The notes beneath the pieces were generated by a model. It did no database searches and was not told the DNA's origin. It worked only from the letters and a program-made list of their open reading frames with translations. The position numbers and the translations under genes are program-made. This document shows positions 7,650-56,673 of a stretch of DNA of 64,000 nucleotides, in pieces (position 1 is the first letter of the stretch; the number at the start of each line of letters is the position of its first letter). Source of the stretch: Veillonella parvula (GTDB lineage Bacteria; Bacillota; Negativicutes; Veillonellales; Veillonellaceae); the NCBI RefSeq assembly GCF_945949885.1, contig NZ_CAMFFZ010000005.1:13010-77009 (forward strand), in the 5' to 3' direction.

Positions 7650-8320
7650 TGGATTTCTTCATGCAAGAACTTGGTGTTCCAGGATCGCAGTTATTATTAG
7701 CCGCAGAACAGACATTATATATGGTGTTCCTATCTCTATTTATTGGTACAGTACTAGGTCTAATTATCGCAGTCACACTGGTAGTAACAAATCCTAATGG
7801 TATCGTTAAAAATAGTATTGTTTATACCATTACCAATACAATTGTTAATATTGTGCGTTCCGTACCATTTATCATTTTGATGGTGTTTATATTACCGTTA
7901 ACTAAGATGATTGTAGGTACTCGTGTTGGTACAACAGCGGCTATTGTACCACTTGTTATATTCATTGCACCTTATCTTGCTCGACTCTTTGAGAACTCTA
8001 TTTTAGAGGTTAATAAAGGCATTATCGAGGCAGCACAATCGATGGGGGCCTCTCATTTTGAAGTGATTTGGCATTTTCTTTTACCAGAAGCAAAGGGTTC
8101 GCTTATTTTATCTATTACAACGGGTACTATTGGTCTAATCGGTGCTACTGCTATGGCTGGTGCTATTGGTGCTGGTGGTGTAGGTGATTTGGACCTCACC
8201 TATGGTTATGAACGATTGAACTTCCCATTGATGTTATTTACCGTAGTTATTTTGATTATTTTTGTTCAAATTATTCAAACAATAGGTAACTATTTTGCAC
8301 GTCGTGCGCGTCGTTCCTAA
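7649..8320 (+). CDS. metI: methionine ABC transporter permease
   Basis: Its ATG overlaps the metN stop (TAATG). Multi-TM protein with an EAA-like loop (IEAAQSMGAS). Confidence 0.9.
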   Translation: MDFFMQELGVPGSQLLLAAEQTLYMVFLSLFIGTVLGLIIAVTLVVTNPNGIVKNSIVYTITNTIVNIVRSVPFIILMVFILPLTKMIVGTRVGTTAAIVPLVIFIAPYLARLFENSILEVNKGIIEAAQSMGASHFEVIWHFLLPEAKGSLILSITTGTIGLIGATAMAGAIGAGGVGDLDLTYGYERLNFPLMLFTVVILIIFVQIIQTIGNYFARRARRS

Positions 8321-8374
8321 TTTGATAAAATAGATTTTAGTTATATTGATTGTGAAAATATAGGAGAAAATACT

Positions 8375-9199
8375 ATGAAATTTAAAAAGCTTCTTGCCCT
8401 TGGTGCAGCATTAGTATTCAGCGTAGCTTTTATCGCAGGCTGCGGTTCTAATAATAGCGATAATGGTGCTAAAAAAGAATTAACCTACAGTAAATCTCAG
8501 GGTCCTTATTCTGAATTGTTTGAAAAAGGTGTAAAGCCAATTTTGGAGAAACAAGGCTATACTTTTAAAGGCGTAGATATGTCTGATTTGGTACAAGCTG
8601 ACCAAGTGTTAAGTGATGGTGAGGTTGACTTTAACGTTGAACAACATACAGCATACATGAAAAACTTTAACGAAAAACAAAATGGTCATCTTGTAGCATT
8701 AACACCAATTCCAACAGTACCAGCAGGTATCTTTAGTGGTTCTAAAACATCTTTAGATCAAGTGGCAGATGGCGACACTATTGCTGTACCTAATGATGCA
8801 TCCAACATGGCTCGTGCTTATGCGTTATTGCAAAAAATCGGTTGGATTAAGCTTGATCCTAACAAAGATTTAGCAACAGTAACTCAAGCAGATATTATTG
8901 AAAATCCTAAACATCTTAAATTTACAGAAATGAAATCCCTTACAATTCCTTCTGTACGTACTGACTTTGATTATATCGTTATTACAGGCGCTATTATCTA
9001 TAATGCAAAAATTGATCCTAAATCTGCATTGGCAAATGAAGACGTATTGCCACAATGGTTATTACAACTCGTAGTTAATGAGAAAAACAAAGATGCACAA
9101 TGGGCAAAAGACATCGTAGCAGCTTACCAATCTCAAGAATTTAAAGACTACATGGAAAAAAATAACAATGGCCTATGGTTCGTACCAAAAGGTGAATAG
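8375..9199 (+). CDS. metQ: methionine-binding lipoprotein (NlpA/MetQ family)
   Basis: Signal peptide with lipobox IAGC. MetQ-like body. Third gene of the metNIQ arrangement. Confidence 0.9.
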   Translation: MKFKKLLALGAALVFSVAFIAGCGSNNSDNGAKKELTYSKSQGPYSELFEKGVKPILEKQGYTFKGVDMSDLVQADQVLSDGEVDFNVEQHTAYMKNFNEKQNGHLVALTPIPTVPAGIFSGSKTSLDQVADGDTIAVPNDASNMARAYALLQKIGWIKLDPNKDLATVTQADIIENPKHLKFTEMKSLTIPSVRTDFDYIVITGAIIYNAKIDPKSALANEDVLPQWLLQLVVNEKNKDAQWAKDIVAAYQSQEFKDYMEKNNNGLWFVPKGE

Positions 9200-46746: not shown

Positions 46747-48099
46747 ATGGCTCGTTTATTTGGTACAGATGGTGTACGTGGTGTTGTTAATGAGTTTTTA
46801 ACGCCAGAATTAGCCTATCATTTAGGTCGTGCGGCAGGAACGCATTTTGGTAAGGAAAAGGAACATCCTACGTTCTTGATTGGGCGCGATACGCGAATTT
46901 CTGGTTCTATGCTTGAAAGTGCATTAGCAGCGGGCATTTGTTCTGTTGGCGGTAATGTAGTGATTGCAGGCGTTATCCCAACTCCAGCAGTAGCGTACCT
47001 TGTACGTCAACAAGGGTTTGATGCGGGTGCTGTTATTTCTGCATCTCACAATCCATATCCAGATAATGGCATTAAATTCTTTGATAGCAATGGCTATAAA
47101 TTACCTGATGAAGTGGAAGATGAATTGGAAAAATATGTTCGTCAAAGTGCAGATAATGAATTGGCGCGTCCTACAGGGAATGGTATAGGTAAAATTGAGT
47201 TTAATAGTAACTTGGCTCATTTATATGCTCATTTCGTACGTCACACAATCGATACGTCCCTTGAAGGGTTGACTATCGTTTATGATGGTGCCAATGGCGC
47301 AGCTTCCAGTGTAGGTCCGGAAATTTTGTCTGGACTAGGGGCTAAAGTCATCAATATTAATGTGAATCCAGATGGCTTGAACATCAATCATCACTGTGGT
47401 TCTACGCATATCGAAGGATTGCAAGTAGCTGTGCAACAACATAATGCAGACCTTGGTATTGCTAATGATGGCGATGCTGACCGCTGTTTATTGGTTGATG
47501 AAAAAGGTCAAGTTCTCGATGGCGATCAAATTATGTTGTTATGCGCTCTTAAGTTGAAAGAAGAAGGCAAACTTAAAGGTGATACCATAGTTGGTACCGT
47601 TATGAGTAATATCGGATTCCATAAAGCAGCAGAAGAACTTGGTATGAAAACGGTTTCCACTGCTGTTGGTGATCGGTATGTATTGGAATACATGCGTGAA
47701 CATAATCTTTCCGTTGGCGGTGAACAATCTGGTCACGTAATCTTCTTAGATCACAACACCACTGGTGACGGTATGTTAACAGCTGTTCAAGTGGCGGCTC
47801 TTATGAAGGAGAAAAAGCAGCCTCTTTCTGAATTGGCTTGCATTATGACAAAATACCCACAAGTTCTTGTAAATGTTCGTGTAGCTACAAAAACTGGCTG
47901 GGAAGATAATGATCTTATCAAAGCTGCTATCGTAACAGCTGAAGGAGAGCTCGGTGACGAAGGTCGCGTACTTGTACGTGCCTCTGGTACAGAACCACTC
48001 ATTCGCGTTATGGCAGAAGGTCCAGACCAAGAAACATTACAATCATTATGTGAAGAAATCGCTGATATTATCGGTAGAGAACAAGGGTTGGCAGAGTAA
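46747..48099 (+). CDS. glmM: phosphoglucosamine mutase
   Basis: MARLFGTDGVRG N-terminus, active-site SASHNP, GDGDADR and GEQSGH motifs. AAGGAGG RBS. Confidence 0.95.
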   Translation: MARLFGTDGVRGVVNEFLTPELAYHLGRAAGTHFGKEKEHPTFLIGRDTRISGSMLESALAAGICSVGGNVVIAGVIPTPAVAYLVRQQGFDAGAVISASHNPYPDNGIKFFDSNGYKLPDEVEDELEKYVRQSADNELARPTGNGIGKIEFNSNLAHLYAHFVRHTIDTSLEGLTIVYDGANGAASSVGPEILSGLGAKVININVNPDGLNINHHCGSTHIEGLQVAVQQHNADLGIANDGDADRCLLVDEKGQVLDGDQIMLLCALKLKEEGKLKGDTIVGTVMSNIGFHKAAEELGMKTVSTAVGDRYVLEYMREHNLSVGGEQSGHVIFLDHNTTGDGMLTAVQVAALMKEKKQPLSELACIMTKYPQVLVNVRVATKTGWEDNDLIKAAIVTAEGELGDEGRVLVRASGTEPLIRVMAEGPDQETLQSLCEEIADIIGREQGLAE

Positions 48100-48114
48100 C
48101 ATAAAATTGAGATT

Positions 48115-48168
48115 AAGACCTCTGAGGTATCTAGTAGTAATTTAGATACTTTAGAGGTCTTTTTTTTC
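48115..48168 (+). terminator. rho-independent terminator after glmM
   Basis: About 19-bp stem AAGACCTCTGAGGTATCTA / TAGATACTTTAGAGGTCTT followed by TTTTTTT. Confidence 0.8.
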
Positions 48169-48223
48169 TCAATATTAAATTAATTAGATATGAGGTGGAA
48201 ATTCCCCATGACATTTATCTTTA

Positions 48224-48252
48224 TTGACTGAAAAGAATTCATAAATTATAAT
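48224..48252 (+). promoter_or_regulatory. near-consensus sigma-70-type promoter of the islet operon
   Basis: TTGACT (48224-48229), 17-nt spacer, TATAAT (48247-48252). Confidence 0.55.
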
Positions 48253-48316
48253 TAGCTCATCAAATATTCATGAGTTTTAAATGAAGCTTTGCGCATGGTT
48301 TATAAAGGTGCTGATT

Positions 48317-49870
48317 ATGGAGTCAAAGAAAAAGAAAGATTATCGTGATAACTTTAGAAATGCATCTATCTCTGGTGGGATGGTAGAGACCGTTGATAGA
48401 TTTGGTTCTGCAAACAAAGAGCATTTAGTTGCGTATTCTGGGATTGATAATGAGCGTTCTAAAGTATTAAAAAAAGGATTAGAAAGAACAGCAAGTTCAA
48501 AAGTTAATTCTAAGTACAAATTTAAGAATGAACACCAACAAGCTGGATTTTCTGCTGAAGATAAAACAGTAGCACGTGCTAATGCAGAGGCAATTATTGA
48601 AAAACGAACAGAGCGCATGGTTCGTACTGATGATATAGGAAGAGTAAATGATCCTCTTTATGATACGGTAATTATAGATCGTGATGGCAATATAGTAGAA
48701 GGAAGTGGAACACAACTTAAATTTGTTGGTGCTGCTGAGAAAGATCCATCAGGAAAATATACTGCAAAACGTGTTGTAGATTATTTAAAAAATAGTAAAA
48801 GAGATAAGTATTGGGAAAATGATGTACCGGTAGAGATTCCATCAGATCAATATAAATCTGTTAAGGATGAATTATTAAAACAAAAAAATAGTATAAAACG
48901 ACAACTTGAAAGTAAAAAAATAAGTGAAGAAACTAGAGCTAAAAAAGAATTACAACTTAAGAAATTAGAAAAAATAGAATCCAAATTGAAAAAAGGTCGA
49001 GTTTCTTCTGCTGAGGCTATAGAGGCTCGTCGTAATCCTAAATTATCAACAATTAAGGACATAAATAAATTATCGCATAGGGCTGGTTTAGAAGGTGCGA
49101 AATATGGAGCTGCTATAGGTGGTATTATGTCGATAATTAATAATACCGTAGCGGTATGCCGTGGCGAGAAAAGCATGTCAGAGGCTATAAAACATGTTGC
49201 ATTAGATACGGGTGTTTCAGGAGGAGTTGGCTATATTTCTACGTATACTGGTGCTGCAATAAAAGGGGTGATGCAAAATTCAAGTAATGCATATATTAGA
49301 ACTATATCTAATACGGGTTTGCCTGGCATTATGGTTTCCGCTACTCTTGCAAGTGGAAAAGTTTTAAATAGATATTTAAAGGGGGAAATAGATGGTGTTC
49401 AGTGTTTGCAAGAGTTAGGACAAGAGAATATGAATATGATTTCTTCTTCTTTATATGCAGTTATTGGGCAAGCACTTATTCCAATTCCTGTTGTGGGAGG
49501 GATAGTAGGCGGAATGATGGGGTATGCATTATCCTCCGCAACATTTAGTTTGCTAAAGAATGCACTAGAAGAAGAGAAATTAGTAAAAGAAAATCGAATA
49601 TTGATTGAAAAAGCTTGTGCTGAACATATTCAGAAAATGCAAGATTATAAGCGTGATTTAGAAGAGTTTGTTAATAAATATATAGCTGAAAGGATTGATT
49701 TATTTAATGAGTCTTTAACAGGGGTTTTGGATGCATTAAATATTGATGATACAGAGTGGTTTGTAGACAGCTGTAATAGTATTACTAAACAATATGGTGG
49801 TGATCCTCTTGTTGACTCTCAAGAAGAGTTTAATAGGAAAATGATTTCCAAAGATGTTTTTGTATTATAA
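48317..49870 (+). CDS. islet protein A: unknown N-terminal domain + Lys-rich coiled coil + Gly-rich hydrophobic (glycine-zipper-like) segments + helical C-terminus
   Basis: ATG at 48317 follows AAAGGTG. Coiled-coil stretch KQKNSIKRQLESKKISEETRAKKELQLKKLEKIESKLKK. Hydrophobic small-residue segments GAKYGAAIGGIMSII, TGVSGGVGYISTYTGAAIKG and IPIPVVGGIVGGMMGYALSS. I recognise no family. Confidence 0.75.
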   Translation: MESKKKKDYRDNFRNASISGGMVETVDRFGSANKEHLVAYSGIDNERSKVLKKGLERTASSKVNSKYKFKNEHQQAGFSAEDKTVARANAEAIIEKRTERMVRTDDIGRVNDPLYDTVIIDRDGNIVEGSGTQLKFVGAAEKDPSGKYTAKRVVDYLKNSKRDKYWENDVPVEIPSDQYKSVKDELLKQKNSIKRQLESKKISEETRAKKELQLKKLEKIESKLKKGRVSSAEAIEARRNPKLSTIKDINKLSHRAGLEGAKYGAAIGGIMSIINNTVAVCRGEKSMSEAIKHVALDTGVSGGVGYISTYTGAAIKGVMQNSSNAYIRTISNTGLPGIMVSATLASGKVLNRYLKGEIDGVQCLQELGQENMNMISSSLYAVIGQALIPIPVVGGIVGGMMGYALSSATFSLLKNALEEEKLVKENRILIEKACAEHIQKMQDYKRDLEEFVNKYIAERIDLFNESLTGVLDALNIDDTEWFVDSCNSITKQYGGDPLVDSQEEFNRKMISKDVFVL

Positions 49871-49879
49871 GGAGGAAAA

Positions 49880-50446
49880 ATGTATTTATCTGGTAATGAT
49901 TATGAAGTTGCGTTGTATTATTTGTTTATGCTTTCTGATAATAAATTGACTGATGATGAAATGAAACTTTTTAAAAATATATGCTTTCGTTTAGATAAGA
50001 TGGATTCATACGAAGCCATTATAAATTATTGTGATTCACTAGGAAGAGAATCTAGCTTTACGAAGTTAGAAAATGAAAAAATTGCCGAGCAATTAGAAAG
50101 CTATTACTACTCTAAAGAAATTGATTCTAAATTTTCTAAAGGTCGTTTGATTGAAATCATATGGAATCTTATTGGGTTAGCAAAAAGTGATAGTGATTAT
50201 AGTGAATTTGAAAAGCATATGATTTTACATCTCTGTAATTCTTGGAATATTAATGAATCAGTTTATAAAGAGTTATTAGATTGCTCTCGGACTATGGATT
50301 GCATCGAATCTTATAGAGGTTGGGTTAGAAATACATTATCTGCTGATAAAGGGCTATTTGAAGAGGAGAAGCTTATTGATGATCAATTAACCCTAATTCA
50401 AAATATGGTAGCTAATTCAGCAAAAGAATTTACTATAAATGCATAG
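49880..50446 (+). CDS. islet protein B: cytoplasmic helical protein, TerB-like (tentative)
   Basis: GGAGG RBS. Two copies of the TerB-type pattern: MLSDNKLTDDEMKLFKNI and LAKSDSDYSEFEKHMILHL, compared with A.ADG.....E...l. Confidence 0.7.
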   Translation: MYLSGNDYEVALYYLFMLSDNKLTDDEMKLFKNICFRLDKMDSYEAIINYCDSLGRESSFTKLENEKIAEQLESYYYSKEIDSKFSKGRLIEIIWNLIGLAKSDSDYSEFEKHMILHLCNSWNINESVYKELLDCSRTMDCIESYRGWVRNTLSADKGLFEEEKLIDDQLTLIQNMVANSAKEFTINA

Positions 50447-50458
50447 GAGGTTAATATT

Positions 50459-51454
50459 ATGCCATTACCATTATTATTAATTGCAGGTGCAGCTGTTGCT
50501 GGTACTATTGGTGTAGGAAAAACTATTGATGCTATTAGTACTCAAAATAAAGCTAACGATATAAATGATGATGCTCAAAGTATTGTAGACTATGCTAAGA
50601 GCAAAATGTCTTTTGCCAGAGTCGCTTCTGGAGAATCTTTAAGCCTGTTGGGTGAATGTAAAGTTAAAATTTTGAATTCTTCTATTCACAATTTTGTAAA
50701 TGAATTTAGTAAGGTAACTAATGTAGAAACAGATAACTCCGTTGATACATCTTTTGAACTTGTGATTGACGAAAAAGAGCTGGAAGAGTTAAAAGAATTA
50801 TCTGTTATTGCATCTTCTTTAGCAAAAGGTGCCGCTGGAGGTGTGGTATCTGGAGCTGTTACTGCTTTTGGTGCATATAGTGCTGCCGGTATTTTAGCAT
50901 CTGCATCTACTGGGACTGCAATTGCTACATTGAGTGGTGCTGCCGCAACTAATGCTACATTGGCCTTTTTTGGCGGAGGCTCGATAGCTGCAGGTGGTCT
51001 TGGAATAGCAGGTGGAACTGCTGTTTTAGGTGGGCTTGTTGCAGCGCCAGCCTTAGTAATTTTAGGTGTAGTTGCATCATCTAAAGCTAATGCGAACCTC
51101 GAAGATGCAAGATCCAATTTGGCAAAAGCAAAAGCTTTTGACTCTGAAATCGATTTAGCTGTAACAGAATGTGCCTCAATAAGACGTGGTGCAGATATGC
51201 TGAATAGATTTTTGATATCTTTAAATTCGATATTTGCTCCATTAGTATTTGAAATGACAGATATAATTAATCGTAAAGGAACTGATTTTAGTTTATATTC
51301 AGATGGAGATAAGCAGATATTTAGGAAAGCGGGTACATTGGCACGTACTATTAAATCCATTTTAAATATAGCTATCTTAAATGATGATGGTAAGCATGAC
51401 TCTAATAGCATTGCACAATTAGAAGCTATAAAAAAAGAATCTAACCTTGTTTAG
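50459..51454 (+). CDS. islet protein C: N-terminal TM helix + helical region + ~90-aa Gly/Ala-zipper hydrophobic core + helical C-terminus
   Basis: GGAGG RBS. Core sequence GAAGGVVSGAVTAFGAYSAAGILASASTGTAIATLSGAAATNATLAFFGGGSIAAGGLGIAGGTAVLGGLVAAPALVILGVVASS. Confidence 0.75.
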   Translation: MPLPLLLIAGAAVAGTIGVGKTIDAISTQNKANDINDDAQSIVDYAKSKMSFARVASGESLSLLGECKVKILNSSIHNFVNEFSKVTNVETDNSVDTSFELVIDEKELEELKELSVIASSLAKGAAGGVVSGAVTAFGAYSAAGILASASTGTAIATLSGAAATNATLAFFGGGSIAAGGLGIAGGTAVLGGLVAAPALVILGVVASSKANANLEDARSNLAKAKAFDSEIDLAVTECASIRRGADMLNRFLISLNSIFAPLVFEMTDIINRKGTDFSLYSDGDKQIFRKAGTLARTIKSILNIAILNDDGKHDSNSIAQLEAIKKESNLV

Positions 51455-51474
51455 TTAAATTTTACGGATTAATT

Positions 51475-51726
51475 ATGTTTTTATGTGATAAATGTGGATT
51501 ATGTTGTAGAAATATTGATAAAGTTCCGCAATTAAAAGAGTTTCATAATGGTGATGGTATCTGTAAATTTTTGACTAATAATAAATGTAGTATATATGAG
51601 AGCAGGCCATTAATCTGTAATATTGATAAAGTTTATGAATTATTCTTTAGTAATTTATATACTTTGGAGGAGTTTTATAAATTGAATTATCAGGTGTGTA
51701 TGATTTTAAAGAAACATAAAGTTTAA
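51475..51726 (+). CDS. islet protein D: YkgJ-family Cys-cluster (CxxCxxCC) zinc/iron-chelating domain protein
   Basis: CDKCGLCC at the N-terminus and CSIYESRPLIC further on, the two hallmark blocks of the YkgJ/UPF0153 family. 83 aa. Confidence 0.75.
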   Translation: MFLCDKCGLCCRNIDKVPQLKEFHNGDGICKFLTNNKCSIYESRPLICNIDKVYELFFSNLYTLEEFYKLNYQVCMILKKHKV

Positions 51727-51773
51727 TTTTGATTATAAAACTTTATAGTATAGATTCTAAAAAGTAAAGATAA

Positions 51774-51806
51774 TGAGTAGGAGCTAATTTATTCCTACTC
51801 GTTATT
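51774..51806 (+). terminator. terminator of the islet operon
   Basis: GAGTAGGA / TCCTACTC stem followed by a T-rich tail. Confidence 0.65.
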
Positions 51807-51816
51807 AAAATCATTG

Positions 51817-52260
51817 GTTTTGATAGTTGATGACCGTTATGTATTGGAATATATGCGTGAACACAATCTCTCCGTTGGCGGTGAACAATCTGGTCACGTA
51901 ATCTTCTTAGATCACAACACCACTGGTGACGGTATGTTAACAGCTGTTCAAGTGGCGGCTCTTATGAAGGAGAAAAAGCAGCCTCTTTCTGAATTGGCTT
52001 GCATTATGACAAAATACCCACAAGTTCTTGTAAATGTTCGTGTAGCTACAAAAACTGGCTGGGAAGATAATGATCTTATCAAAGCTGCTATCGTAACAGC
52101 TGAAGGAGAGCTCGGTGACGAAGGTCGCGTCTTAGTACGTGCATCCGGGACAGAACCACTCATTCGTGTCATGGCTGAAGGACCTAACCAAGAAGAACTA
52201 CAATCTCTGTGCCAAGAAATCGCTGATATTATCGGTAGAGAACAAGGGTTGGCGGAATAA
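51817..52260 (+). pseudogene. glmM' : displaced duplicate of the last ~145 codons of glmM, with no start or promoter
   Basis: Alignable to 47658-48099. Positions 51871-52130 are identical to 47710-47969. It ends with its own stop and a diverged C-terminal coding stretch. Confidence 0.9.
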
Positions 52261-52585
52261 AAGTAGGGTGTGAGGCGGCAGAGGAGCTTGCGACGATGAA
52301 GCCCACACATCACTTTGTTCCGAGCGTAAGATTTCGGAAAGCAAAATCCACAGCGAGGAACCATCTTTACTGAGATTAATCTTATGGATTTTAATAATTG
52401 TGAATTCATTCTACAATTTTTATATCAAAGGTATACCCTCCTATATATGTCCCTTTGCTCCGTCCTACGTAAAGTCGCCGCAGGAACATATATAGGAGGT
52501 TTAGAGATAAGTGATATTTTAAATTGAATAATCATAATGAATAACTTTTTTGTTTTGGGTTATTCTAAGCTTAGAGGGTGACATT

Positions 52586-53281
52586 ATGAAAACAATAGGC
52601 TTAATTGGGGGAATGAGCTGGGAAAGTACGATTACGTATTACCAAGTTTTGAATGAAACTATTAAGCAAGTTTTGGGCGGCTTACATTCGGCAAAATGTA
52701 TTTTATATAGCGTTGATTTTGAAGAAATAGAAAAGTGCCAGGCAAATGGCGATTGGGATAGAAGCGCTGAAATTTTATCCGATGCGGCTCAATCTCTTGA
52801 AAAGGCTGGTGCTGATTATATTGTTATATGCACGAATACAATGCATAAAGTAGCGGATGAAATAGAAAAACATATTCACATACCTCTTCTTCATATTGCG
52901 GAAATGACTGCAGTAGAGTTAGAAAAATCAGGTATTACAAAGGTAGGTCTACTCGGTACCAAGTACACGATGCAACAAGATTTTTATAAATGTATCTTGG
53001 AAAATCGGGGGATTCATGTTGTTATCCCTAACGAAGATCAAGTTGAACTTGTGAATGGTATTATATACAATGAATTGTGTTTAGGTGTTATTTCTAATGA
53101 ATCTAAACAACAATACTTAGATATTATTGGTGATTTGGTAAAATCTGGTGTACAAGGTGTTATTTTAGGCTGTACTGAAATCGGACTACTTATTAAACAG
53201 GATGATACAGATATACCGTTATTTGATACTACATTGATACATGCAAAAAATGCGGCGTTGATTTCTATTGGTAGAGCATAA
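52586..53281 (+). CDS. aspartate/glutamate racemase-family protein (aspartate racemase-like)
   Basis: MKTIGLIGGMSWEST N-terminus, with catalytic Cys contexts ICTNTMH and LGCTEI. Confidence 0.85.
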   Translation: MKTIGLIGGMSWESTITYYQVLNETIKQVLGGLHSAKCILYSVDFEEIEKCQANGDWDRSAEILSDAAQSLEKAGADYIVICTNTMHKVADEIEKHIHIPLLHIAEMTAVELEKSGITKVGLLGTKYTMQQDFYKCILENRGIHVVIPNEDQVELVNGIIYNELCLGVISNESKQQYLDIIGDLVKSGVQGVILGCTEIGLLIKQDDTDIPLFDTTLIHAKNAALISIGRA

Positions 53282-53314
53282 TATAGTTAGCTTTTATTTT
53301 TGTTTAAATAACAT

Positions 53315-53372
53315 AACCCTCTATTAGATATTTTTATTCATTTTTAGAATATCTAATAGAGGGTTGTTTTTA
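53315..53372 (+). terminator. rho-independent terminator
   Basis: 17-bp stem AACCCTCTATTAGATAT / ATATCTAATAGAGGGTT followed by GTTTTT. Confidence 0.85.
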
Positions 53373-53520
53373 TGCAATTAGAACTAGCTAGAGACTAAAG
53401 GAAATCTTTTAGCATGGTTTGAATTTATATGAGAGGAGTTACTATAGGCACGTATATAGGAAGTAATTTGTGTTATTATAGCCATATAGTCTGAAATATA
53501 TTCGATAGAAAAGGTGTAAT

Positions 53521-54633
53521 ATGAAGCTTGCTATAAAAGAGTATTGGGAAAATCTTAAAGTAGAATATGAAGCTACATATAATGCGTCTATATTTAGTGA
53601 TTATGATGTGCTAAAGCAATACGCAGAGCGTTTTAGAACGTATTTAATTACTTTGATGTGTGAGTATTCTAATGATGTGGATGTGGCCTGTACTTTAGCA
53701 ACTGTTGAACAGGTGTTGAGGGATGAGAAAAATTCAATACAACTATTGGAAGGGTTCCTTGAAGCTTATACTAATGAACTTAGTGATACTGATAAAGCGA
53801 GAATTTACACTAATTTGGCTTTTTATTATAACGATGAGGGGAGTATAAAAGAATATGACTATCTATCAGCAGCTGTAAAGTTAGATTCTCCATATATAGA
53901 GACTTACAGAGGGCTGGCTTTATATCATTTTTCCTCTTATGCAGATAAGGGTTCAATAGAGGAGTTGAAGAAAAGTTTATGTGCCTTTGAAAAGGGAAGA
54001 ATAGTATCCAACGATTATGAAATGAACTTTGGCTATGCAGTGTGTTTGTTTGAGCTTAAGAAATATGAGAAAGCAAAGGTCATTTTTGAAGAGTTATTAA
54101 AAAGCTATCCCAATAGAATGAGATTACTAGTTTGTATTGTTTATTGTGATGTCTATTTAGGTAATAAAAAGCAAGCCCTCGATCGTTTGAAGCAAATTAA
54201 GCTTGGAGGTGATGTAGCATATCATTTAAGTAATGATGAAGTTTTTGAGTTTGATATCATTGACGCCTATTATATATTAGATGAGTATGGCCTATTCTTA
54301 GATGAGTGTGAAAAGGCTAAAGAGCACTGTGATTTAAGTGATGGCCCTTATTACTTTGGTCTTTTGATTATGAATCAACATGATATGTTCCATCGTGAAG
54401 TGGACAAGCAACGAACAGAAATATTGGCATGCATTGAAAATGCAAAAATGGACGAAGACTTTGATAGCGAAGAAGAAAAGCAGGACTATATCAAAAGCTG
54501 GGAAGATGATTTAGAGAATCTAAATTTGTTGGAACATAAAATTAAAGATGAAAACTTTAAACCTACAGTTGAACTAAAACTATGGCCAATATATGGTTGC
54601 TATTTAATAGATTGTTTAACTCATAATTTTTAA
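53521..54633 (+). CDS. cytoplasmic helical-repeat (TPR-like) protein of unknown function
   Basis: AT-rich ORF with TPR-like helix pairs (e.g. FELKKYEKAKVIFEELLKSYPNRMR). No signal peptide. Confidence 0.65.
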   Translation: MKLAIKEYWENLKVEYEATYNASIFSDYDVLKQYAERFRTYLITLMCEYSNDVDVACTLATVEQVLRDEKNSIQLLEGFLEAYTNELSDTDKARIYTNLAFYYNDEGSIKEYDYLSAAVKLDSPYIETYRGLALYHFSSYADKGSIEELKKSLCAFEKGRIVSNDYEMNFGYAVCLFELKKYEKAKVIFEELLKSYPNRMRLLVCIVYCDVYLGNKKQALDRLKQIKLGGDVAYHLSNDEVFEFDIIDAYYILDEYGLFLDECEKAKEHCDLSDGPYYFGLLIMNQHDMFHREVDKQRTEILACIENAKMDEDFDSEEEKQDYIKSWEDDLENLNLLEHKIKDENFKPTVELKLWPIYGCYLIDCLTHNF

Positions 54634-54705
54634 TCTGCTTATTGGTAGATTTATATAAAGATGATTTATATATTTAAACTGATATACAAGTAAGTTTAAC
54701 AAATT

Positions 54706-54752
54706 AAAAGCACTACTTTGAATTGCAATTATTCAGAGTAGTGCTTTTGTTA
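54706..54752. terminator. bidirectional terminator between convergent genes
   Basis: AAAAGCACTACT / AGTAGTGCTTTT stem. Confidence 0.8.
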
Positions 54753-56150
54753 TTATTTATCAGCTACAACAAGTTTATATCCATTCAATTGAATGTTACT
54801 GCCGGTTGTGTCTTCGTTGCTCAAGGATTTTACATGGCTGTCGCCAGTGAGTATCCAATTGGAGTCTTTGCTGAGTTTCACAGTTACTTCTTTAGCCGTA
54901 TTGTCTGTGTTTACAGCACCTACAAGGCTAGATCCATTTGTCATGTCAAGAGCGATGGTACTGATTGAATCGGCCATAATATTACCGCTTAGTTCTTGAT
55001 TAGATGCGCGGAGTGTAAGGTGACCGCCGTTCTCACCAGTTTTTCCCCAACGGGAGTCAGCAGCTGCTTTCACTAGGGTAGATGTGTTCGGCATAGAGAT
55101 TGCATTGTTAGAAAGGTCTACTTCAGCAATGGTGTTGTTTACATAGAGGAACGCACCTGTAGCGTGAGTTGTGAGTGTGTTATTCTCTGCTTTCAGACGA
55201 GCAATACCGCTTTCAGCATCACCAGAGAAGCTTTGATATAGCATGAAGCCATTATCTTTGTAGCCTGTTACATTGGAGTTTGTAAGGGTTATGGAATTTT
55301 TACCTTCTACGACGCCAATTTCACTGTTATTCGCTATGCCGTTGACATTGTTTACCATAATATTACCCGTGGAGTAGATAACAGGACTGCCTTCGCCAGA
55401 TGTGGTGAGTTTGGCTGCTTCTGCGGTGATAGTGCCTTCTCCGCGATCTGTAGCAAGTGTAGCGGAGTGAGCCCCTTCAGTGGTGATAGTTAGGTTTTTG
55501 CCATTTACAGTACCTTTGTAAGTAGCATCTAAACCACGAGAGGAATCGCTTTTTGTGTGAATATTAGTATTTTCTACGTTGATAACCGAGCCTTCGCCAG
55601 TGGCAAAGACTGCATTAGAGCCTTTAGCGTTAGATGTAATATTGCTACCCTTGATATTGATTTGACTGCCGTCAATGCTGAGAACTACTGCATTTTGACC
55701 ACGAAAATTGCTGTTATCGTCGTTTGTAGTGTTGCCAGTCTTATCGAAAACACTATTTTCAATATCAATTATCGCTTTATTTTTACCGATGAAAGCATTC
55801 TGATCGGCTGTTGTGTTTGTCATCGACTCATGAGCAATGGATTTGTTTTCTGTAACGATAGTTGAGCCTTTGAAAGTATTAGGATCTACTTCGGCTTGTG
55901 GTGCCATACCATTAGGACCACCGTTTGGAGATGTGCTTCCTTGTGCGGATGGTACTGTTTTGGTTTGCTCTGTTGTGGTTACAACTGCGATGTTAGTGTT
56001 AGACTGAGTTTCTGCTGCTAAGGTTGGAATAACCGCTAATGTCGACAGAGCTGCACCAAGGACCGCAGGTAATATCCAACGACGCAATTTTCTATATGAT
56101 AAACTATTCTTTTTAGTTTTATGTTGCTTCTTTATAGTTGTTTTATTCAT
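54753..56150 (-). CDS. secreted parallel beta-helix-like repeat protein
   Basis: Basic N-terminus plus signal peptide (..RRWILPAVLGAALSTLAVIPTLAAE). The rest is Asn/Gly/Thr/Ser-rich ~20-25-aa repeats (..GSNITSNAKGSNAVFATGEGSVINVENTNI..). The ATG at 56150 is preferred over the longer ORF. Confidence 0.75.
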   Translation of the reverse strand: MNKTTIKKQHKTKKNSLSYRKLRRWILPAVLGAALSTLAVIPTLAAETQSNTNIAVVTTTEQTKTVPSAQGSTSPNGGPNGMAPQAEVDPNTFKGSTIVTENKSIAHESMTNTTADQNAFIGKNKAIIDIENSVFDKTGNTTNDDNSNFRGQNAVVLSIDGSQINIKGSNITSNAKGSNAVFATGEGSVINVENTNIHTKSDSSRGLDATYKGTVNGKNLTITTEGAHSATLATDRGEGTITAEAAKLTTSGEGSPVIYSTGNIMVNNVNGIANNSEIGVVEGKNSITLTNSNVTGYKDNGFMLYQSFSGDAESGIARLKAENNTLTTHATGAFLYVNNTIAEVDLSNNAISMPNTSTLVKAAADSRWGKTGENGGHLTLRASNQELSGNIMADSISTIALDMTNGSSLVGAVNTDNTAKEVTVKLSKDSNWILTGDSHVKSLSNEDTTGSNIQLNGYKLVVADK

Positions 56151-56305
56151 GATTAATATCTCCCAAATTATATACATACATTTTGAAAATACAACAAAAT
56201 CTAATTGTGTAAAATTTAGAATGATAGAAGTATAATTTCTTACAATGAAAAGGACGTGAAGCATAGAAACAATCTTTTTTATTCCTTTTGAATTATCTTA
56301 GGTGG

Positions 56306-56335
56306 TTTACTTTTTATCGATTTTTTTAGTATAAT
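56306..56335 (+). promoter_or_regulatory. candidate promoter of the glmS leader
   Basis: TTTACT, 18-nt spacer, TATAAT (56330-56335). Confidence 0.4.
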
Positions 56336-56399
56336 ATACCTCAGTACATATTTTATTTGTACTGATTCTGCCATATATCACAGAAAGGAATTCCGAATT

Positions 56400-56546
56400 C
56401 GTAAAGGCGAATAGCGCAAGTACCCACGAAGGCAGTCGTTAGGGTAGACGAGGTGAAGAGTGATCGAGTCATCAGCGGATGCTCTTCCGGCATATTCATG
56501 TCGTAACAGGTATTAAAAAACCCATCGGTAACGATGGGGACAAAGT
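56400..56546 (+). ncRNA. glmS leader: glmS ribozyme (GlcN6P-dependent self-cleaving riboswitch)
   Basis: AGCGC at 56413 (expected cleavage just 5' of it), then GACGAGGTGAAGAG..ATCGA...CAGCGGATGCTCTTCCGGC...GTAAC...CCCATCGGTAACGATGGGGACAAAG. This matches the conserved glmS ribozyme core blocks. It lies ~130 nt upstream of glmS. Confidence 0.85.
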
Positions 56547-56673
56547 ATATCTGAATGAATTGTATTGAATTAATAATTAATATATTAAATAGAATATTAA
56601 TCTAGAACATTAATTAGTTAGCCTTAGTTTTTGCTGGGGCTAGAAATACCCCCAGTTATAGGAGGATATACTC

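Follow-up and report, generated by a model that had tools for sequence, protein, structure and literature searches.

A four-gene membrane-protein operon of Veillonella parvula is probably an extended member of the Dionysus anti-phage defence family

What does a compact operon composed of two glycine-zipper membrane proteins, a TerB-domain protein and a small cysteine-cluster protein do for an anaerobic Negativicute? This question is raised by four genes, named A to D here, which occupy positions 48317 to 51726 of a 64,000-nt stretch of Veillonella parvula DNA (the window, whose coordinates are used below unless stated otherwise). The initial annotation, made from the sequence alone, had described them as a membrane-associated anti-phage defence module that follows the logic of abortive infection, and knew of no named system composed of such genes. 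A membrane-associated defence module is supported here as the most likely function, both by homology to the Dionysus (DinABC) system and by the accessory context of the genes. At a probability of roughly 0.7, the operon represents a Bacillota (Veillonella) member of the Dionysus anti-phage defence family, extended by the fourth gene D. The four genes are:

48317-49870, + strand: gene A, 517 aa, DinA homologue.
49880-50446, + strand: gene B, 188 aa, soluble TerB-domain protein in the DinB position.
50459-51454, + strand: gene C, 331 aa, DinC homologue.
51475-51726, + strand: gene D, 83 aa, small CxxCxxCC (YkgJ-type) Cys-cluster protein.

Dionysus, reported from Gamma- and Betaproteobacteria only, is comprised of DinA, which has a MAEBL-like region and a transmembrane (TM) domain, of the TerB-like DinB, and of DinC, which resembles the alpha-pore-forming toxins (alpha-PFTs) and has four TM segments (10.1101/2025.09.30.679545). 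The Din protein sequences were taken from the supplement of that preprint, the comparison with DinA covering 399 of its 557 aa. A, B and C have DinA, DinB and DinC as their one-to-one counterparts; gene order and orientation agree, and the spacing of A to C is tight. BLASTP aligned A with DinA at 34% identity over 393 columns (193 bits, spanning all 399 compared DinA residues), and C with DinC at 37% identity over 324 columns (129 bits). A shares with DinA its head domain, a K/E-rich coiled coil and a Gly-rich membrane region. The family alignment of A shows a head with the invariant residues QQxG(F/Y)xAE, RxDD, D116 and QxKF; all of these are present in DinA, in which 42 of the 50 alignable invariant positions of the family are identical. 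C shares with DinC the MPIP... N-terminus and the near-invariant core ...ASTGTAI..L.G.AATNATLA..GGGS.AAGG.G.AGG.... For B and DinB, pairwise BLAST gave no match, while a 52-sequence profile of the B family matched DinB at E=2.6e-10 and hhalign assigned the pair 86% over 56 columns. On the basis of these homologies of A, B and C, the cassette is best regarded as a Dionysus-family system with an extra gene, so a named system with this core does exist. A WYL label and a small Cys-rich open reading frame (ORF) are also found at the Pseudomonas locus, as at the loci of many relatives. The V. parvula operon differs from Dionysus by its Negativicute host, by the addition of D, and by a B protein that matches Pfam TerB better than DinB does (E=4.7e-8, above the gathering score, vs 0.09).

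In Pseudomonas aeruginosa PAO1, two jumbo phages, phiKZ and oPa36, plate more than 10^6-fold less efficiently when Dionysus is present, an effect for which all three genes are needed (10.1101/2025.09.30.679545). Cells carrying the system show no propidium iodide uptake and survive at a multiplicity of infection of 10, i.e. the defence is non-abortive; it abolishes the vesicles of early phage infection (EPI vesicles) and the phage nuclei, and foci of DinA and DinC form at the EPI vesicle sites (10.1101/2025.09.30.679545). AlphaFold 3 predicts that DinC binds the C-terminus of DinA in a 1:1 complex and that DinB is a homodimer (10.1101/2025.09.30.679545). By analogy, the outcome expected for the Veillonella operon is direct, non-abortive interference at an early, membrane-associated step of infection.

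Under abortive infection, the logic preferred by the initial annotation, the sensing of infection would lead A and/or C to open lethal pores in the host's cytoplasmic membrane, by which the cell is depolarised and the phage cycle cut short. Abortive systems often use membrane effectors, and the predicted shape of C fits such a role. C has an N-terminal hydrophobic segment (residues 1-20) and a near-invariant, uncharged Gly/Ala stretch of 85 residues (124-208). Its AlphaFold 2 (AF2) model is a long antiparallel helical hairpin (mean predicted local distance difference test score, pLDDT, of 60) with a hydrophobic Gly/Ala tip (pLDDT 23-39). Among the top weak matches of this model to folds in the PDB is the AhlB pre-pore, at a non-significant level (prob 0.63, E=0.21, TM-score ~0.26), and the authors of the Dionysus study compare DinC to ClyA/Hbl/Nhe (10.1101/2025.09.30.679545). 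The helical hairpin modelled for C, with its hydrophobic tip, resembles the ClyA-family alpha-PFTs (ClyA, Hbl, Nhe, AhlB); unlike these toxins, C is predicted to be cytoplasmic, membrane-anchored and unsecreted, and its hydrophobic element consists of the 85-residue Gly/Ala stretch. Set against the pore model are the lack of significance of these fold matches and the propidium iodide and survival results, which are the only experimental data for the family and conflict with abortive infection, although they come from one host (P. aeruginosa) and one phage type. We therefore consider abortive infection unlikely, and prefer the reading of the operon as a Dionysus-type, non-abortive system.

Protein A is composed of an alpha/beta head (residues ~20-175), a K/E-rich coiled coil (~176-240), a Gly-rich hydrophobic helical region (~245-415), in which hydropathy delimits uncharged Gly-rich segments at 263-281, 298-315, 329-347 and 371-413, and a C-terminal helical domain (~420-517). 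In its AF2 model, pLDDT values of 82-96 are reached over residues ~20-260, and the head forms a confident alpha/beta domain, whose many invariant polar residues suggest a catalytic or ligand-binding site. The C-terminal ~100 aa of A are kept in every variant that adjoins a C gene, as is the Gly-rich region in most, and it is the N-terminal ~240 residues that are swapped or absent in variants of ~800, ~540 and ~270 aa. The initial annotation, which saw in A a potential pore or lesion former, did not do justice to its modular build, in which an N-terminal head that is highly conserved can be swapped for others. Such modularity is typical of conflict systems.

The ~800-aa variants carry an N-terminal Peptidase_M48 zinc-metalloprotease domain (E=2e-15) in place of the DinA-type head, and a longer TerB protein and then a C homologue are encoded after them (e.g. 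L036:5028-7436 and L048:6873-9191). M48-headed A proteins were also found at L038, L040, L066, L067, L069, L070, L079, L084, L086, L088 and L092, and judged by their domain content these loci constitute a protease-headed sub-type of the family. The EACC1/Pepco protease-gated pore effectors were considered for these variants, and no sequence link to A or C could be established. A deep search with the head of A (window 48317-48856) against 1.84 billion representative proteins retrieved it in 292 protein clusters, almost all of them A-like in length. Three rare fusions stand out among its relatives: P0306, in which a microbial poly(ADP-ribose) glycohydrolase (PARG, macro-fold) catalytic domain is fused N-terminal to an A-type head; P0252, in which an A-type protein has, fused in frame to its N-terminus, the C-terminal half of a protein of the D type (CxxCxxCC); and P0338, in which a CxxC...CxxC zinc ribbon is fused N-terminal to an A-type head. 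The fusion to PARG is a hint that ADP-ribose chemistry may take place near this domain.

The head was also compared with PD-(D/E)xK nucleases. The order of its predicted elements (alpha-beta-beta-beta-alpha-beta) and the residues E81, D116/D121 and Q133-x-K135 fit that pattern; neither Pfam, PDB profiles nor Foldseek, which was run on the full-length model, gave support, and a PD-(D/E)xK nuclease is put forward as a candidate idea that rests on the motif and on the order of predicted secondary structure. A further conserved position lies at the start of the membrane region, where the near-invariant histidine of an SH(R/K)AG motif, H254 in A, aligns with H296 of DinA. The loss-of-function mutant of DinA is H326A (10.1101/2025.09.30.679545). 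The two DinA positions are offset by exactly 30, and may be the same residue under different start-codon annotation.

Apart from its TerB domain, B is characterised by two conserved D-x6-E pairs (D20/E27 and D104/E111), and some B variants carry extra YtxH/DUF883-like helices. D matches the Pfam family CxxCxxCC (PF03692, E=2.3e-7, above the gathering score), and eight Cys are invariant across its family. The initial calls of a TerB protein, a CxxCxxCC protein and glycine-zipper proteins are thus upheld by Pfam and by hydropathy. A D-family gene lies directly 3' of C in 26 of the 76 loci with enough flank (34%), almost without exception where A is of the ~520-aa type, and in L039 the gene order is D-A-C. 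Given this co-occurrence, the D-A fusion of P0252, the order in L039 and the invariant Cys, D has the appearance of a true accessory to A. Homology of D to the 70-aa Zn-ribbon ORF that follows dinC in Pseudomonas was tried and rejected (hhalign 7%, HMM E=0.08), and this ORF may be a functional analogue of D.

Taken together, these features allow a mechanism to be proposed. A and C would form a membrane-associated complex via the C-terminal helical domain of A, whose universal presence fits the predicted DinC-binding role of the DinA C-terminus. The near-invariant Gly/Ala hydrophobic tip of C would be the membrane-inserting element, directed into the target membrane, and B, with its TerB domain and two acidic D-x6-E pairs, would serve as a membrane-proximal sensor or regulator. 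The conserved N-terminal head of A would act as a sensor or enzymatic module, which has been swapped for other heads in evolution, while D would be a metal-binding (Zn or Fe-S) Cys-cluster accessory with a metal- or redox-dependent function on or with this head. On infection, the complex would strike at the injection site or at a membrane structure associated with the phage, and the host would be spared.

Other catalogued systems were compared as well. The PADLOC search that the initial annotation had called for matched both membrane proteins to a defence candidate, an independent pointer to defence: C to PDC-M09A (E=1.3e-21) and A to PDC-M09B (E=1.5e-14). No defence model of PADLOC v2 covers the TerB gene B or the CxxCxxCC gene D. 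The PDC set is comprised of 145 candidates predicted from their embedding in BREX, DISARM or type I restriction-modification (R-M) loci, among which PDC-M09 (CAS_00055) is a candidate system consisting of a two-family cassette, FAM_02775>>FAM_02807 (Payne et al. 10.1101/2024.01.29.577857). A literature search found no text mention of PDC-M09. DinC matches PDC-M09A at E=8e-25, a distance similar to that of C, and PDC-M09 is on this ground placed as a sister branch of the same superfamily. It differs from the operon in having two genes, C-like then A-like, and no TerB or CxxCxxCC model. The order M09A>>M09B is absent from the window, which has M09B-like (A), TerB, M09A-like (C) and D, and among the labelled loci a C-then-A order was seen only in two from Pseudomonadota (L063 and L090). 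Shango SngA, Bunzi BnzA and the ter operon share with B the TerB domain, which is thought to be amphitropic and membrane-proximal; Shango differs by its helicase/ATPase partners, which are missing here, where TerB is sandwiched between two Gly-zipper membrane proteins.

The operon stands at a remarkable site: the 3' end of glmM is duplicated as a 435-nt direct repeat on both sides of the cassette, bracketing an inserted unit of 4161 bp. The elements of the site and the expression signals of the operon are:

47665-48099, + strand: direct repeat copy 1, the end of the intact glmM (46747-48099).
48115-48161, + strand: glmM terminator-like hairpin with a 20-bp stem and T-run, at the left end of the inserted unit.
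48224-48252, + strand: sigma-70-like promoter TTGACT-17-TATAAT, 11/12 matches, inside the inserted unit.
51769-51806, + strand: hairpin after D with a 15-bp stem and weak U-tract, probable operon terminator.
51826-52260, + strand: direct repeat copy 2, a truncated glmM' remnant.

Looking up the exact GlmM protein retrieved five metagenome contigs with the same cassette and glmM' remnant, as well as a contig with an identical GlmM and an empty site (L015), on which glmM is directly followed by the Asp/Glu-racemase gene that in the window stands after the glmM' remnant. In a three-way alignment, L015 carries the polymorphisms of copy 1 as far as a stretch of 40 nt in which the two copies do not differ (48053-48092 / 52214-52253), beyond which it has the last codons of copy 2 and the downstream DNA. 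Judged by these polymorphisms, the junction is as expected if one crossover took place at the very 3' end of glmM, and it fits either the insertion of a circular intermediate or its excision (Campbell-type homologous recombination or its reversal). L015 is a 6.2-kb contig of low coverage; its origin from plain assembly collapse is unlikely because collapse would give the polymorphisms of copy 2. According to the ORF list and Pfam, the 4161-bp unit contains no integrase, transposase or recombinase gene. Site-specific integration of the 4.16-kb unit was rejected on this ground and because the junctions fit homologous recombination in the glmM repeat. The inserted islet of the initial annotation is thereby confirmed as strain-variable, and bracketed by a glmM duplication which that annotation had missed.

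Other Veillonella-like contigs carry a related cassette in the same glmM-to-glmS interval (C at 84% and 64% identity), in which the racemase gene is absent. In the window, this interval (48100-56670) holds the cassette, the racemase, a protein with tetratricopeptide repeats (TPR) and a 503-aa ORF; in L001 the cassette is accompanied by a type IIG R-M enzyme of the MmeI type and by an ORF of 450 aa, and in L005 by SUKH_5/SMI1-type genes. By this comparison, the stretch between glmM and glmS acts as a hot spot of variation in Veillonella-like genomes. In the window, the racemase gene lies at 52550-53281 (+), the gene of the TPR-containing protein (370 aa) at 53521-54633 (+), and the 503-aa ORF, which is rich in Asn/Thr, has a hydrophobic segment in its N-terminal part and matches no Pfam family, at 54753-56264 (-); some related contigs are without the 503-aa ORF and the TPR protein. 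Two strong inverted repeats, one between the glmM' remnant and the racemase gene (52437-52499, 18-nt arms, 94% complementarity) and one just after the racemase gene (53310-53370, 23-nt arms, 91%), are probably terminators or regulatory hairpins.

Within the inserted unit, the four genes are co-directional and separated by gaps of 9, 12 and 20 nt. Ribosome-binding sites precede A (AAAGGTG), B (AAGGAGG) and C (AGGAGG), and that of D is weak. An alternative upstream ATG of A at 48281 has no ribosome-binding site; the 517-aa start is preferred because the AAAGGTG site serves it and the homologues start there. The promoter sequence at 48224-48252 is the top match of the 6 kb that were scanned, in which promoter-like matches numbered 20, against 24.4 in shuffled sequence; given this lack of excess, its role as the promoter of the operon is plausible and unproven. 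The hairpin at 48115-48161, terminator-like in its stem and T-run, would insulate the operon from glmM read-through. The GC content is 0.29-0.38 over most of the cassette, rising to 0.42 in the Gly/Ala-rich part of C, vs 0.41-0.44 in glmM and the flanks. The operon structure, spacing, near-consensus promoter and low GC content first described for this locus thus all hold. The claim of an own terminator holds in part: the hairpin at 51769-51806 is the probable operon terminator by its 15-bp stem and stability (minimum free energy of the 104-nt region -24.9 kcal/mol, z = -3.8), but it lacks a clean U-tract, and a terminator consensus scan made no call there.

How widely the family is distributed was assessed in a species scan with one genome per species, and gene order and identities were derived from the best 80 loci (ORF calling, phmmer labels). 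Both membrane proteins are real: at least 4914 homologues of C (~335 aa) and at least 659 of A (~520 aa) were found, with conserved lengths. A Pfam profile search assigned no family to A or C, and searches of NCBIfam and PHROGs returned only noise from the Gly-rich segments (e.g. GvpT, tape-measure). A and C were also considered as paralogues, which was rejected (hhalign probability 3%). Relatives of C occur in at least 492 species of at least seven phyla. In the best 80 loci, C shows 41-63% identity, with the exception of one Veillonella metagenome-assembled genome (MAG) at 84%, and the hosts are Veillonella, many Lachnospiraceae/Clostridia, Enterococcus, Treponema/Spirochaetota, Fusobacterium, Eggerthellaceae, Fretibacterium, Ruminobacter, Marinobacterium and Bacteroidota (Alistipes, Phocaeicola, Bacteroides, Prevotella). 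A and C adjoin almost everywhere, with the TerB protein between them in ~70% of the 80 loci, and an A-(B)-C core is found across seven phyla, at 42-55% identity. Lachnospiraceae bacterium NK4A144 has two copies of the system on different scaffolds (L027, L061), and L022 ([Clostridium] aminophilum) apparently has two C-family genes ~4.7 kb apart, suggesting tandem systems. Collections of mobile elements yielded 3 of 72,556 plasmid records, 0 phage records and 3 IMG/VR contigs, and with this near-absence the family cannot be called typically phage- or plasmid-borne. Two of the IMG/VR contigs (L096 and L097), both classified as viral, are near-identical, ~44 kb in length, and carry a C homologue (48% identity) at 8001-8954, near one contig end. 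Comparison of the loci and of the glmM site shows the cassette to be accessory, horizontally spread and strain-variable.

In ~20% of the loci a WYL regulator (~320-370 aa, same strand) either adjoins A upstream or closely follows D (L006:9338-10354, L020, L024, L031, L038, L040, L022 and others), and it is likely an optional transcriptional regulator of the system; the window contains none. An uncontrolled tally of neighbours, drawn from the first batch of loci, included WYL regulators (10/146), LmuB, DrmD, LeoA/BC, mad2, HEC-07, Cas3-like helicases and integrases. In a Clostridia-like MAG (L006-L009:369-5842), a Dynamin_N GTPase cluster and a NERD-helicase gene precede the cassette, and WYL and septin/AIG1-like GTPase genes follow it. 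Given the LeoA/LeoBC-type neighbours elsewhere, the system may be linked recurrently to dynamin-like defence genes that remodel membranes.

These distributions bear on two further explanations. The operon could be an envelope or membrane-stress homeostasis module unrelated to phages, involved in TerB-type stress, membrane-protein quality control or metal/redox handling: TerB stems from tellurite/stress operons (Pfam), stress-protein helices of the YtxH/DUF883 type and an HtpX-like M48 peptidase occur in some B and A variants, D is a putative metal-chelating protein, and many neighbours are housekeeping genes. This is quite improbable in view of the patchy distribution over phyla at high identity, the variable presence of the cassette in a population sharing an identical GlmM, its association with R-M, WYL and other defence genes, and the homology to a system with a >10^6-fold anti-phage effect; moreover, ORFs and Pfam revealed no ter genes (TerC/TerD/TerZ-type, terZACDE) within ~8 kb of the cassette, in the window or on related contigs.

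An inter-bacterial toxin/immunity set, or an addiction (toxin-antitoxin-like) cassette stabilising the island, is brought to mind by the SUKH/SMI1-type immunity-like genes that adjoin the cassette in L005 and by weak Bacteriocin_IIc matches in the Gly-rich regions, and glycine-zipper proteins include membrane-depolarising antibacterial toxins. We give this explanation very little credence: A-D show neither signal peptide nor double-glycine leader and include no secretion-system gene, plasmids and phages are all but devoid of the family, and protection in Dionysus needs all three genes, with no reported toxicity.

Membership in the Dionysus family remains the preferred reading, and several points weigh against it. 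Identity to the validated system is just 34-37%, and the likeness of B to DinB exists at profile level only and over the second half of B. Neither A nor C has a significant PDB match by sequence profile or by fold, the outcome of the structure comparison that the initial annotation had proposed. The membrane region of C is modelled at pLDDT <40, so the pore-forming step is inferred only, as is the role of D, which has no counterpart in the published Dionysus. Many neighbours of the cassette are ordinary housekeeping genes. The experimental basis of Dionysus is one preprint with one host, P. aeruginosa, and nucleus-forming jumbo phages; to our knowledge, no such phages are known for Veillonella.

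Very few defence systems are reported to act on the membrane vesicle that nucleus-forming jumbo phages form early; Dionysus is one of them, and has thus far been known from one preprint and two proteobacterial classes. Homologues in Veillonella, Lachnospiraceae, Bacteroidota, Spirochaetota, Fusobacteriota, Actinomycetota and Synergistota widen the family greatly, and this range raises the question of what the system senses in hosts without known phages of that type. New here are the taxonomic range, the D component and the D-A fusion, the exchangeable heads (M48 among them), the WYL association, and the insertion by glmM duplication with its empty site. The anatomy of the proteins yields testable hypotheses on which parts bind, sense and act, and on the residues to mutate, at a locus that annotation pipelines would at best label PDC-M09-like. 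More tentatively, and with considerable doubt, Dionysus-like systems could be a pan-bacterial, modular membrane-surveillance platform rather than an anti-jumbo-phage speciality of Pseudomonas. If so, C and the C-terminal and Gly-zipper modules of A would be its constant part, the heads (conserved, M48 or PARG-preceded) its variable part, and TerB, the Cys-cluster protein (D or Zn-ribbon) and WYL its optional parts. Given how abundant the family is in gut and oral anaerobes of seven phyla, phage-made membrane structures, such as early-infection vesicles or similar, would then be far wider spread than Chimalliviridae, or the system would sense a more general membrane event of phage entry, and D would be a redox- or metal-dependent switch specific to the anaerobe-type variants.

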